This document shows positions 41,549 to 48,450 of a DNA stretch of 64,000 bases, piece by piece. Every line of letters begins with the position of its first letter. Position 1 is the stretch's first letter. The DNA comes from Candidatus Saganbacteria bacterium (lineage in GTDB: Bacteria; Margulisbacteria; WOR-1; XYC2-FULL-46-14; XYC2-FULL-37-10), in NCBI GenBank assembly GCA_016223245.1, contig JACRPL010000016.1:1128-65127 (forward strand), given 5' to 3'. Below the pieces are notes generated by a model. It saw only the letters and a list, made by a program, of their open reading frames with translations. It was not told the DNA's origin and did not search any database. Position numbers and translations under genes: made by a program.

Positions 41549-42723
41549 TCCCAATCGACCTTAAAACATCCGACTTCGATTATGATCTTCCCCAAAGTTT
41601 GATCGCTCAAACACCGACCAATAAACGCGACGAATCGCGATTGATGGTCCTCAACCGAAAAGAAAAAACAATCGAACACAGGCTATTCAAAGATATTATT
41701 GACTATCTAATGCCCGAGGATCTTCTGGTATTAAACGACACAAAAGTAATGCCCGCGAATCTTATTGGGAAGAAGGCTGATGGGACGGCGAGGATTGAAG
41801 TTCTTCTTGTTCAGCGATGGAAACCTGCGACTAAATCCCGATGTGGGAATCGGGACAAGCGTCGCGGTTTCCAAAAATGGACATGTCTTGTGAAACCCGG
41901 CAAACGATTAAAAATAGGATCGAAAATAGTTTTCTCGGGAAAATTAACAGGTACGATCCGTGAGAAATTAGAATCCGGAGAACAAGTTATCGAGTTTATA
42001 GGCGAACTTCAGGGATTTATGCGTGAGCATGGGGAGATACCATTGCCGCCTTATATAAAAGTAGCTAACTCACCCCCTCAATCCCCCTCTCTTATTAAGA
42101 GAGGGGGAAGCCCGAAGGGCGGGGGTGAGTTGATCGCTAGATATCAGACAGTCTACGCCGAGAAAGAAGGCGCCTCGGCGGCGCCAACGGCGGGGCTTCA
42201 CTTTACCTCCGAACTTTTGGATCAAATAAAAGCAAAAGGCGTCAACATCGCGAAAATAACCCTTCACACTGGGCTTGGGACCTTTAAACCAGTTTATGCC
42301 GAATATATTAAAGACCATAAGATGTTCGAGGAAGAATACGAGGTGTCTGCGGAAACAATACGCGCGATATCCCGATGTAACATCGGGATGAAACGCGTGA
42401 TCGCGGTCGGAACAACGAGTGTTAGGACATTGGAAACCATTTACCCACACTTACATCTCCCTCTTATCAAGGGGGAGAACGAGAGGGGGTCAACCGACAT
42501 CTTTATCTATCCAGGATTTAAATTTCAAATAGTTGATGCCATGATTACGAATTTTCACATTCCAAGATCAACTTTGCTGATGCTTGTTTCCGCCTTCGCA
42601 CAGAATGCTTCGGCGGACAAGTCCGCCTTCGCAGGGAGAGATTTTATTTTTCGTGCTTATAAAGAAGCGATAGATAAGGAATATAGATTTTTCAGCTTTG
42701 GCGATGCGATGCTTATTATTTAA
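41545..42723 (+). CDS. queA: S-adenosylmethionine:tRNA ribosyltransferase-isomerase, with two in-frame palindromic-element insertions
   Basis: It begins DFDYDLPQSLIAQTP and has the QueA core. It is longer than usual because of the inserts SPPQSPSLIKRGGSPKGGGE and HLPLIKGENERGSTD. Confidence 0.8.
   Translation: MIPIDLKTSDFDYDLPQSLIAQTPTNKRDESRLMVLNRKEKTIEHRLFKDIIDYLMPEDLLVLNDTKVMPANLIGKKADGTARIEVLLVQRWKPATKSRCGNRDKRRGFQKWTCLVKPGKRLKIGSKIVFSGKLTGTIREKLESGEQVIEFIGELQGFMREHGEIPLPPYIKVANSPPQSPSLIKRGGSPKGGGELIARYQTVYAEKEGASAAPTAGLHFTSELLDQIKAKGVNIAKITLHTGLGTFKPVYAEYIKDHKMFEEEYEVSAETIRAISRCNIGMKRVIAVGTTSVRTLETIYPHLHLPLIKGENERGSTDIFIYPGFKFQIVDAMITNFHIPRSTLLMLVSAFAQNASADKSAFAGRDFIFRAYKEAIDKEYRFFSFGDAMLII
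42068..42130. repeat. GC-rich nested palindromic element inserted in-frame in queA
   Basis: actcaccccc-tcaat-ccccctctcttattaagagaggggg-aagcccgaagggc-gggggtgagt is present. Confidence 0.75.
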
Positions 42724-42732
42724 TTGCTATAA

Positions 42733-46579: not shown

Positions 46580-47680
46580 ATGTTTAAGTTTGAAGTTTTC
46601 AAAAAAAGCAAAAGATCCAAAGCGCGAGTCGGAAAAATTTATACGGACCATGGCGTCGTCGAAACTCCGATCTTTATGCCCGTTGGGACGCAAGCGACAG
46701 TTAAGACAATGTCCCCGCGCGACCTGAACGAAGTCCAATCGCAAATAATTCTCTCAAATACTTACCATCTATATTTGAGGCCCGGACACGAACTGATAAA
46801 AGAAGCCGGCGGGCTCCACAAATTTATGTCGTGGGATAAGCCCATTTTAACCGACAGTGGGGGATTCCAGGTATATAGTTTAGCCCACAACAGGAAAGTT
46901 TTGGAACATGGAGTCGAGTTCGCTTCTCATATCGATGGATCAAAGCATCTATTCACTCCAAAAAAAGTAGTTGAGATCCAAGCGGCGCTCGGCTCCGACA
47001 TCATGATGCCTCTCGACGTCTGTGTCTCATATCCTTGCGATAAAATTGAGGCTAAAGATGCAGTAGAAAAAACTACACGTTGGGCTGAAGAGGCTAAGGC
47101 AACCCTCACCTCTAACCCCTCTCCCAGTGGGAGGGGGGAAGAGCGAAGCGAAGGGGTGAGGGCTTTATTTGGCATTGTCCAAGGAAGTACCTTTTTAGAT
47201 TTGCGAAAACAATCCGCGAAAGAAATTTCTGATATCGGATTTCCCGGCTTTGGGATCGGAGGATTATCCGTCGGCGAGCCGCAGGACCAAATGTTTGAAA
47301 TGCTTGATGCAGTTACCGATATTTTGCCGGAAAACACTCCAAAACACTTAATGGGAGTGGGTTTCGCGTCGGATATTCTTGGGGCGATCGAGCGCGGGGC
47401 GGATATGTTCGATTGCGTCATTCCAACGAGATTAGCACGGCACGGGTCTTTTTTGACCCTTGACGGAAAGACAAGTATTCGCTTGGCACGATTTACTAAG
47501 GATTTTACGTCCATCGATCCGGAATGCGATTGCTACGCCTGCAAAAATTTCACTAAAGCATATATCAGGCACCTGTTCTGGGCAAGAGAAATATTAGCAA
47601 TGCAATTGCTGACAATTCATAATATCCGATTTCTTTTAAGATTAGTCGAGAAAGTTAGAAAGGATATTATTGAAGAATGA
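46580..47680 (+). CDS. tgt: Queuine tRNA-ribosyltransferase, with an in-frame palindromic-element insertion
   Basis: It has [36 protein letters not shown] and the zinc site CDCYAC. Its extra segment is [16 protein letters not shown]. Confidence 0.85.
47103..47162. repeat. GC-rich nested palindromic element inserted in-frame in tgt
   Basis: ccctcacc-tctaa-cccctctcccagtgggagggggg-aagagcgaagcgaa-ggggtgaggg is present. Confidence 0.75.
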
Positions 47681-48450
47681 AAAAAAATGCCCTCACCCAG
47701 TTTTTCCAATTTAGTGAGCATAAACCTATTTCCCCTCTCCCAGTGGGAGAGGGGTTAATTGAATCAAGTCTCAAAACCAAGAAGTTGGGTGAGGGATATT
47801 GGAAACTTATTTGGATTTTGGTTTTAGGATTTTGGATTTCGTCTGTAGCTTGTGCGATTCCAAGCAAAGTCTTTCTAAATGTTCCTTTCATCCCCCAAGC
47901 CCCGAACGGCATATGGAATGACATATATAATGAAGCATGCGAAGAGGCGGCTATCATTATGGCGACGCGTTATGTCGAAAATAAGGGCTTGAGCAGGACA
48001 GAAGCCGATAAAGAAATATTGAAACTTGTCGACTATCAAAAAAAGAATTATGGCGGACATTTCGATCTTCCTGTGAAAAAAACCGCTCAATTAATGAAAG
48101 ACTTTTATAAGTTCATGAACTTTCAAATCATAAATTCCGCTTCTATCGAAACGATGATCGATGCCCTAAGCCGCGGGGACCTTGTTATTGCGCCATTCGC
48201 GGGAAGGTTGTTGAAAAATCCTTATTATAAAACTCCTGGGCCTGTTTACCATATGCTTTTATTTAAGGGATATGATCTTTCAAGGAAGGAATTCATTGTA
48301 AATGACCCCGGGACCAAGCGCGGGTTGAATTATAGGTTCAAATTCGATGTCATCGATAATGCCTGGCACGATTGGACCGGGACACCGAATAATATCGCTA
48401 AAGGCAAGAAGAACTTTATCGTTATATTGGACAAAAAAAATATTCTTTGA
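47677..48450 (+). CDS. Peptidase C39-like domain protein with signal peptide (the real start may be TTG at about 47783)
   Basis: It has [32 protein letters not shown]. The first about 38 codons of the track ORF are encoded by a palindromic element. Confidence 0.45.
47689..47794. repeat. Expanded copy of the nested palindromic element (outer arms ccctcaccc/gggtgaggg, inner hairpin cccctctcccagtgggagagggg)
   Basis: The sequence is directly visible and belongs to the same family as the queA and tgt inserts. Confidence 0.75.

Follow-up and report, generated by a model that had tools for sequence, protein, structure and literature searches.

A 64,000-nt stretch of a Candidatus Saganbacteria genome (GenBank assembly GCA_016223245.1, contig JACRPL010000016.1, positions 1,128 to 65,127 of the forward strand; hereafter the window) carries a nested palindrome, an inner hairpin set between outer inverted arms, at three sites: within queA, within tgt, and at the 5' end of a gene for a C39-like peptidase. 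The palindrome belongs to a DNA repeat family, here called family A, whose presence is lineage-specific, which is carried in-frame in protein loops, and which is tied to DUF559 genes across phyla. [quoted passage not shown] The window copies, E1 to E3 and a probable fourth, are listed here with the open reading frames (ORFs) that host them.

41545 to 42723, plus strand: queA, host gene, 392 aa, with five inserts
42067 to 42131, plus strand: E1, family-A nested palindrome in queA, encoding NSPPQSPSLIKRGGSPKGGGEL in the loop termed site 2, directly 3' of the PLPPYI motif
42452 to 42492, plus strand: probable decayed family-A copy in queA, in the loop termed site 3 after VRTLET; hairpin TCTCCCTCTTATCAAGGGGGAGA, then GAGAGGGGGTCAAC
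46580 to 47680, plus strand: tgt, host gene, 366 aa
47103 to 47162, plus strand: E2, family-A nested palindrome in tgt, encoding 19 aa in the only hypervariable loop of Tgt
47677 to 48450, plus strand: C39-like peptidase ORF, 257 aa if the start is 47677; an alternative TTG start, 47783, lies inside the right arm of E3
47690 to 47795, plus strand: E3, family-A copy with long spacers, between the ATG/TGA overlap with tgt and the C39-like signal peptide

An original prediction, made from the letters of the window, had named the three sites; all are present within 1 nt of where they were placed, their quoted peptides check out, and each of the copies sits in an open frame. E1 is laid out as AACTCACCCCC / TCAA / TCCCCCTCTCTTA-T-TAAGAGAGGGGGA / AGCCCGAAGGGC / GGGGGTGAGTT, with outer arms of 11 nt and inner arms of 13 nt, each pair 100% complementary; its 5' spacer is 4 nt long, and the 12-nt spacer 3' of the inner hairpin is itself a mini-hairpin, GCCC-GAA-GGGC. 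E2 and E3 follow a common plan, with arms CCCTCACC.../...GGTGAGGG around a hairpin CCCCTCTCCCA-G-TGGGAG(A/G)GGGG. The outer arms of E2 are 91% complementary, while those of E3 are CCCTCACCCA and TGGGTGAGGG, separated from an inner hairpin CCCCTCTCCCA-G-TGGGAGAGGGG by spacers of 32 and 31 nt. Two details of the predicted consensus need amending: the outer arm ccctcaccc does not describe E1, whose arm is AACTCACCCCC, and in E2 the inner hairpin (CCCCTCTCCCAGTGGGAGGGGGG) departs from the expected gagagggg by one mismatch. Across the family the ends are near-invariant, as AACTCACCCC...GGGGTGAGTT or CCCTCACC...GGTGAGGG, and so is the inner hairpin, CCCCTCTC-loop-GAGAGGGG; the spacers vary. The degenerate copy predicted near 42455 is a probable decayed member of the family at 42452-42492, where homology is plausible but not proven; intact family-A copies fill the same site 3 loop in four related loci (L002, L243, L244 and L245).

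Both stems exceed chance expectation. CCCTCTC-N2-12-GAGAGGG has two matches in the window and CCTCACC-N20-50-GGTGAGG has one, where 100 shuffles gave an expectation of 0.00 for each, and no further family-A copies were found in the 64 kb beyond the three sites and the decayed copy. Folded as single-stranded DNA, E1 forms a three-way junction of -28.3 kcal/mol (z = -8.3); the corresponding z values are -3.4 for E2, -4.65 for E3 and -2.7 for the decayed copy (taken as 42452-42495). The elements had been described as GC-rich, which is true of E1 (58%) and E2 (67%) against a window value of 42.6%, and untrue of E3 as a whole (46%), because its spacers are AT-rich. In size and structure the window copies resemble MITEs: they are shorter than 300 bp, have terminal inverted repeats and contain no transposase gene. 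Searches of Rfam 15 in gathering and E-value modes brought only tRNAs to the gathering score and nothing credible at E <= 5.

QueA and Tgt of the window are each 100% identical to NCBI proteins of Candidatus Saganbacteria encoded on a 91.6-kb contig. The QueA protein of the window has 392 aa, compared with 331-350 aa in most relatives. An excess of about 50 aa had been ascribed to the repeat; the extra length is real, and its cause is five inserts from at least three repeat families. Family A supplies roughly 20 aa through E1 and about 5 aa through the decayed copy, and the remainder is made up by a palindrome of another family (aa 92-108), a palindromic insert of 4 aa and a further insert of 11 aa. 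Relative to solved structures (PDB 1VKY/1YY3) the extra segments are aa 92-108, aa 173-196 (E1, +20 aa), about aa 300-315 (+3-5 aa) and aa 351-361 (+11 aa); the fifth insert, of 4 aa (SRCN), is visible in the ortholog alignment only. Tgt has a single loop longer than that of Z. mobilis Tgt, at the position of E2. In an AlphaFold2 (AF2) model of Tgt (mean predicted local distance difference test score, pLDDT, 76), residues 180-190 fall below a pLDDT of 50 and form a coil between the helix at 155-178 and the strand at 198-200. The AF2 model of QueA is weak (mean pLDDT 64.6, from a 25-sequence alignment) and served loop placement only; all inserts are predicted to lie between secondary-structure elements. 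E3 may be upstream of the true start codon of the C39-like gene, for which both 47677 and the TTG at 47783 are candidates, and most C39-like homologs start at the signal peptide.

The frame of reading differs between copies, E1 being read as AAC TCA CCC and E2 and E3 as CTC ACC, and the inner hairpin is translated into different peptides by copy (SPLPVGEG, for example). This difference among E1, E2 and E3 disfavours any reading of the repeat as a protein module. Every genic copy is in-frame and stop-free, and given that just two or three of the six possible frames are open in any window copy, finding the used one open reflects selection. A candidate explanation in which the repeats are intrinsically stop-free was rejected, as the cores have 3.53 open frames of six and random segments of the same length have 3.84.

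The elements could instead go untranslated, being bypassed by the ribosome, as happens in T4 gene 60, or removed at the RNA level. The mitochondrial GC clusters and "byp" elements of yeast are a ready parallel, since there too mobile hairpins of high GC content enter the coding regions of a genome richer in AT; the byp type disrupts the frame and is skipped during translation, whereas the elements here keep the frame. Uniform in-frame, stop-free insertion is what selection for read-through predicts, and no matched take-off and landing codons surround E1 or E2. Escape from translation is, in our estimation, highly improbable.

Comparison with orthologs shows that the segments are insertions of limited distribution. 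They are absent from T. maritima and B. subtilis QueA and from Z. mobilis Tgt. Closer to home, the nearest QueA ortholog (P0002; 72% identity by BLASTP, 83% over core codons) has no family-A copy, and the nearest Tgt orthologs (P0122 and P0123, about 80% identity) are without E2. In the nearest relative, L247, the C39 gene begins ATGAAAAAA at its ATGA overlap with tgt and enters the signal peptide at once; E3 occupies exactly this empty site in the window, with MKKN encoded before it and the hydrophobic core after it, and in L248 the orthologous site is filled. As had been anticipated, then, the inserts are sited in loops and missing from the nearest QueA and Tgt relatives. Among 25 aligned Saganbacteria/Margulisbacteria QueA proteins the same four loops are hypervariable, and their inserts differ by lineage. 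More distant QueA orthologs carry NSPPLSPSLxKRGG...GGEL at site 2 or site 3, and at the DNA level this is the same element: family-A copies in these orthologs are 85-95% identical in nucleotides, whether at the same or at other loop positions. Such same-position peptides were confined to some orthologs of the same phylum, as DNA-level copies, and were not seen in unrelated bacteria. E1, at site 2 of the window, matches the site 3 copy of the L244 queA at 56 of 59 nt (95%), and the two copies within the L002 queA agree at 70 of 74 nt (95%), while the window queA and the queA genes that carry copies are only 59-64% identical overall and 31-39% identical at third positions, that is, saturated. 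Tgt has one hypervariable loop, and family-A-like inserts occupy it in P0137, P0147 (from L246) and P0219. The window queA combines the probable decayed copy at site 3 with an intact one at site 2, which points to turnover.

Recurrence of NSPPLSPSLxKRGG...GGEL at the same loop in several QueA orthologs could also be taken as a sign of old, lineage-specific protein loops kept by protein-level selection, with the palindromic DNA as a by-product. However, the DNA itself recurs in more than one frame and in either orientation, within other genes as well as between genes, its synonymous positions are identical across hosts whose third positions are saturated, and it is missing from the nearest relatives; the segments themselves are modelled as coil with low predicted confidence. 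An origin in protein-level selection is already largely refuted by these points, and we hold it to be very unlikely.

Family A is not private to this genome. Its core, CTCACCCC followed by CCCCTCTC-loop-GAGAGGGG, is found from E. coli to CPR (candidate phyla radiation) bacteria. A scan of one-genome-per-species contigs with a 22-base gapped pattern (CTCACC, CCCCTCTC, GAGAGGGG) gave, among the matches listed, Chloroflexota, Bacteroidota, Cyanobacteria, Planctomycetota, Gemmatimonadota, Pseudomonas, Xanthomonas, CPR lineages and Saganbacteria; the matches listed conserve bases beyond the pattern, namely CCTCACCCCC and, after a gap of 2-4 nt, CCCC(C)TCTCC. With a stricter pattern, specific to the E1 subtype, at least 133 copies were found in metagenomes, and among those listed the 5' flank is nearly always AA and a right arm is present in about a quarter. 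Elsewhere than in the window the copies are mostly intergenic, in both orientations and beside unrelated genes in many phyla, and many intergenic ones adjoin a stop codon, with TAA abutting CTCACC. Loops vary freely among copies (TTATTAA, TTTTCAA, TTAGGAA and AGT). E. coli carries the motif, in one strain as a perfect 47-nt intergenic version, and inverted doublets of the hairpin unit that fold as one long hairpin occur in L169, L170 and L174, with further inverted doublets in L130 and L257. A BLAST search of plasmids with E1 returned chance-level partial matches only, and literature searches on the element's sequence strings, on Saganbacteria repeats and on in-frame palindromes in CPR bacteria found nothing relevant.

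Elsewhere, in-frame copies are recognisable in MiaA, where two contigs have one at the same site, in TsaD, in a methylase of the SpoU type and in QueA, as well as in GT39 and GT1 glycosyltransferases and an O-antigen-ligase-like protein. Metagenome contigs L166 and L190 (miaA), L234 (tsaD), L196 (SpoU-like) and L132 (pth), each with an in-frame repeat in a further gene of tRNA or RNA modification, are apparently from other uncultured bacteria. The original prediction had likened the inserts to Rickettsia palindromic elements (RPEs) and called such insertions rare elsewhere: the likeness is supported by the absence of the inserts from the nearest orthologs and by a multi-copy family at the DNA level, and the claim of rarity is doubtful in view of these in-frame copies in other housekeeping genes of uncultured bacteria. 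The source being a metagenome-assembled genome (MAG), an assembly or binning artefact deserves mention, but equivalent in-frame copies are present in independent ENA, JGI, Logan and NCBI assemblies and the motif is found in isolate genomes as well, so that we regard an artefact as exceedingly improbable.

A candidate partner for the repeat is provided by loci in which it encloses a gene. In a Saganbacteria MAG (L023), inverted family-A ends enclose a 122-aa DUF559 ORF (PF04480, E = 3e-31), and the resulting unit of about 510 bp takes up precisely the space that separates yajQ from pyrB, two convergent genes. Similar units of about 0.5 kb occur in many phyla, typically with a DUF559 protein of about 110-120 aa, a Vsr-like PD-(D/E)XK nuclease, between inverted motif copies whose arms are outermost. 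When the L023 protein was used as a tblastn query against all fetched loci, themselves selected by the motif, 19 further DUF559 genes were recovered, giving 20 in total; for 18 of them, taken as bracketed by inverted copies, a strict motif copy is found no more than 250 nt away (median about 45 nt; joint chance about 1e-11), and the remaining two have looser copies alongside. The usual order is arm-hairpin, gene, hairpin-arm, irrespective of the orientation of the gene, and at some loci there are doublets on both sides. The association was also approached from the reverse direction, with nine DUF559 genes chosen by protein similarity from a plasmid and chromid collection, and six of these are bracketed by inverted arm+hairpin copies. 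The canonical motif flanks DUF559 in Synechocystis and Sinorhizobium, and variant C-rich arm+hairpin inverted repeats do so in Pseudanabaena, Picosynechococcus, Deinococcus and Sphingomonas; two types of flanking repeat, canonical CTCACCC and CCCCTAAATCCCC, were seen among DUF559 loci.

The DUF559 proteins have an invariant core that includes D61, E72-x-D74 and H78, and their profile matches 3HRL (E = 2e-31) and, weakly, the homing endonuclease domain 3R3P (E = 9e-4). DUF559 is a large family whose function has so far been uncharacterised, and its putative partnership with repeats is a new proposal here. Our search of the DUF559 and ycjD literature found one tie to repeats, a table that gives "DUF559 domain-containing protein" an odds ratio of 14.3 for enrichment among genes with flanking inverted repeats and predicted inversions (Milman et al. 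2023, PMC9881135).

These loci suggest how the window copies may have come about. The arm-hairpin-arm units would have arisen from the 0.5-kb DUF559 units through gene loss: since the hairpin at each end reads the same on both strands, it is present at the two ends as a direct repeat, and recombination or slippage between these repeats would leave arm-hairpin-arm behind. As the window has no DUF559 ORF, its copies are filed as gene-less derivatives. We infer mobilisation by DUF559, with a nuclease encoded elsewhere in the genome that might spread copies in trans, by analogy with RAYTs (REP-associated tyrosine transposases) and their REPINs (inverted REP doublets) and with the homing of I-Bth0305I. 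Selection would then retain only in-frame, stop-free copies in tolerant surface loops, which would explain why the same few QueA and Tgt loops gather inserts of several families. Benefit to the host would not be required. A wider and more tentative proposal is that DUF559 proteins in general, E. coli YcjD included, could be the nuclease partners of pan-bacterial, GC-rich arm+hairpin repeats, in a RAYT/REPIN-like or homing-type mobile system founded on the Vsr-like PD-(D/E)XK fold, whose gene-less derivatives would seed in-frame loop insertions in the housekeeping proteins of uncultured bacteria such as Saganbacteria and CPR lineages.

The same evidence can be set against the possibility that these are ordinary REP/REPIN repeats moved by a RAYT (of the IS200/IS605 type, Y1) or another conventional transposase, with DUF559 incidental, having for instance homed in. 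The short linear 5' segment with its hairpin and the inverted doublets in L169, L170, L174, L130 and L257 resemble REPINs (Bertels and Rainey 2011, PMC3116915), as does the presence of one small nuclease gene between inverted repeat copies alongside dispersed, gene-less ones; the lack of a visible target-site duplication is shared with IS200/IS605-type elements. On the other hand, the flanked gene in 20 loci from several phyla is DUF559, with its PD-(D/E)XK, Vsr-like fold, and not a Y1 transposase, and neither Y1_Tnp nor any other transposase is found among the approximately 50 ORFs of the window. REP sequences are normally species-specific, while the core of this family is cross-phylum, and the window's family-A copies all lie in ORFs, where REPs are extragenic, as most copies of this family are elsewhere. 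Movement by a conventional transposase thus strikes us as unlikely.

Several observations weigh against the derivation from DUF559 units. The 64-kb window contains no DUF559 gene and, among its ORFs, no transposase. No target-site duplication is visible at the six filled sites, where exact empty sites are mostly too diverged for certainty, and none is seen at the tgt-C39 junction, where the empty site is comparable. DUF559 genes are not always bracketed: in Azospirillum the motif is on one side only, in Neisseria hairpins are downstream only, and E. coli K-12 ycjD has the canonical motif on one side only (CCCCTCACCCTAACCCTCTCCCCAGAGGGGCGAGGGGAC, about 165 nt past the stop). DUF559 may also be a passenger that homes into pre-existing repeats and not the mobiliser. 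The case for mobility is drawn from lineage comparisons at 60-80% protein identity, and ancient insertion combined with sequence homogenisation would yield similar patterns. To these should be added the weakness of the QueA model. Lastly, the four window copies are all confined to 6 kb around queA-tgt, and in four relatives, which were chosen for carrying the insert, the sole copy in 15-21 kb sits in queA or tgt. Neutral insertion alone does not explain this clustering; it and its recurrence in relatives may be due to hopping over short distances, to loops of unusual tolerance, to biased sampling or to function.

If function is the answer, the hairpins would be nucleic-acid structures selected at queA-tgt, acting for example in mRNA stability, processing, translation pausing or as queuosine-linked protein-binding sites. 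Besides the clustering, such a role would be in keeping with the strong folding and with arms and stems that stay 85-95% identical despite saturated third positions in the hosts, and in one ortholog the hairpin loop, UUGUAAA, resembles the tRNA-Tyr anticodon loop recognised by Tgt. Against this, loops vary freely with no consistent UGU, the nearest relatives do without the elements, one window copy has decayed, the motif is mostly intergenic beside unrelated genes in many phyla, no Rfam family matches, and the clustering argument is biased by the choice of relatives. Anticodon mimicry for Tgt was rejected as a candidate because of this free loop variation, UUGUAAA being the loop of one ortholog. 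Selected function at queA-tgt is, on balance, doubtful.

Among known systems, the repeats are RPE-like in behaviour and REPIN/RAYT-like in organisation, but are assigned to neither, given the non-Rickettsia host on the one side and, on the other, the genic location and the lack of a Y1 transposase among the window ORFs. As far as RPEs (Ogata et al. 2000, 2002) are described in the summary of PMC10969869, they too are palindromic repeats placed in-frame in unrelated housekeeping genes and read through as a tolerated extra peptide, with several families per genome, and the elements here are likewise in-frame repeats in conserved genes that are missing from orthologs. RPEs are about 100-150 bp long, compared with 60-105 bp here. 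The arms in the window are GC-rich and strongly skewed between pyrimidines and purines, in an architecture that is nested and modular; the host belongs to a free-living candidate phylum and not to Rickettsia; and the family is mostly intergenic elsewhere, with a cross-phylum core and a candidate partner gene in DUF559. We know of no partner gene established for RPEs. The likeness is therefore one of mode of action only, in a Saganbacteria host and with a unit about half the RPE length.

Bacterial MITEs such as Correia, Nezha and ERIC (PMC10969869) share small size, terminal inverted repeats, non-coding sequence and occasional in-frame fusion to host ORFs with the family, from which they differ in that no target-site duplication was detected here and the putative autonomous partner has no known transposase family: the 0.5-kb units with the same ends, such as that of L023 in Saganbacteria, carry DUF559, a candidate and not a demonstrated transposase. 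The Vsr-like EDxHD homing endonuclease I-Bth0305I (PDB 3R3P) shares its nuclease fold with the flanked DUF559 proteins (the weak profile match given above) and so is a precedent for this fold driving mobility, although it is encoded in an intron of a phage gene, and the DUF559 genes described here stand free between hairpin repeats.

A second palindrome family, family B, has copies in and around the same genes.

41818 to 41873, plus strand: family-B nested palindrome, in-frame in queA at the loop termed site 1, GGAAACCTGCGAC ... TCCCGAT-gtggga-ATCGGGA ... GTCGCGGTTTCC; z = -5.7
39310 to 39363, minus strand: family B, intergenic, nearly identical to the queA copy in the opposite orientation; z = -5.8
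46529 to 46561, plus strand: minimal family B (outer arms only), intergenic, just upstream of tgt; z = -6.4
39246 to 39300 and 3439 to 3509 of the window, 3645 to 3735 of L245, 1140 to 1170 of L216: further family-B copies

The outer arms of family B read GGAA(A)CCTGCGA(C/G)...(G/C)TCGCGGTT(T)CC with one bulged base, and the interiors are of three kinds, a TCCCGAT hairpin, a CCTGCCTGCCGGCAGGCA hairpin, or none. One copy is in-frame, as an insertion of about 15 aa in QueA relative to 1VKY, and the others are intergenic; the family is also present in related Margulisbacteria/Saganbacteria loci. The QueA loop that this copy occupies in the window is filled in two other loci (L244 at about 9580-9650, L245 at about 10280-10350) by a nested palindrome of a third kind, family C, with outer arms ATGTAGCGGC/GCCGCTACAT and two inner hairpins, which encodes DVAATFRSPINGSLKTAAT and is nearly identical in DNA between two genomes of different GC content.

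The remaining queA inserts are of other kinds. A perfect direct repeat of 12 nt, TCCGCCTTCGCA, bounds an in-frame insert of 33 nt at 42589-42633 (QNASADKSAFA), which has a patchy distribution, being present in P0007, P0009 and P0011 and not in nearer relatives; as a hairpin element this 11-aa insert (42601-42633) was discounted, with a fold z of -1.3. The SRCN insert (42360-42398) is a perfect palindrome, ATCCCGATGT-A-ACATCGGGAT, and a 15-mer of it, CCGATGTAACATCGG, recurs on the minus strand at 57895-57968 in a tRNA-like 5' half beside two tRNA-Val genes. This half has acceptor, D-arm and anticodon-like stems without a T-arm and is called by neither ARAGORN nor Rfam; next to it, at 57794-57916, tRNA-Val(TAC) lies between 33-nt imperfect inverted repeats containing ACCCCGATGG and CCATCGGGGT. 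In other orthologs the QueA and Tgt loops hold AT-rich, low-complexity inserts (for example L001 at about 1590-1625 and L246 at about 9500-9560), with peptides such as KSQI/NPKS/SNFK, VESRKSKAES from a run of GTAGAAA heptamers, and MTNDQ from AATGACCAATGACC, the last of which resembles a direct repeat at 46439-46466 of the window.

The neighbourhood is arranged differently from that of relatives, in which queA adjoins tgt and the C39 gene adjoins secD. In the window a 3.8-kb block (42733-46504) with three minus-strand genes separates queA from tgt; these encode an unknown 678-aa protein, a PorP/SprF-like protein, and one with weak, below-threshold matches to FlgD-Ig and Por_Secre_tail. An AbiEii toxin gene followed by an unannotated 65-aa ORF (49263-49460) lies between the C39-like gene and secD, at 48601-49460. 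At 14234-22049 the ilv genes (ilvD at 15129, ilvB at 22053, ilvN at 23797, ilvC at 25383) are interspersed with other genes: five for nucleotidyltransferases, of which four have a HEPN or HepT gene as partner, an AbiEii gene and an unknown 616-aa ORF. Two unannotated ORFs, 3621-5306 and 19375-21225, have in common a GC-rich stretch, GCTGGTCGCC(T/A)GATGGGAGAGG, at 4509-4569 and 20525-20613, and are probably paralogous surface proteins. The window has five occurrences of the cyanobacterial HIP1 octamer, GCGATCGC, against 1.25 expected, a count that no shuffle reached. The Pfam match of a methylpurine-DNA glycosylase ORF on the minus strand (56460-56975) is split in two, suggestive of one more small insert.

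If the reading of the window sites as gene-less, read-through copies of a DUF559-associated family is true, the reshaping of essential proteins by selfish hairpin DNA, in the manner of RPEs, would extend to free-living candidate phyla, with queA, tgt, miaA and tsaD as examples, and in-frame repeats would be a general cause of varying loops in MAG proteomes and of noise in their annotation and alignment. Repeat-encoded peptides such as PSPxGRGE and SPSLxKRGG should be masked before phylogenies or hidden Markov models are built from such genomes. The arm-hairpin-arm architecture would simply be the collapsed ends of a 0.5-kb unit, a repeat core common to E. coli through the CPR would gain both an explanation and a candidate enzyme, and DUF559/YcjD would gain a testable function.

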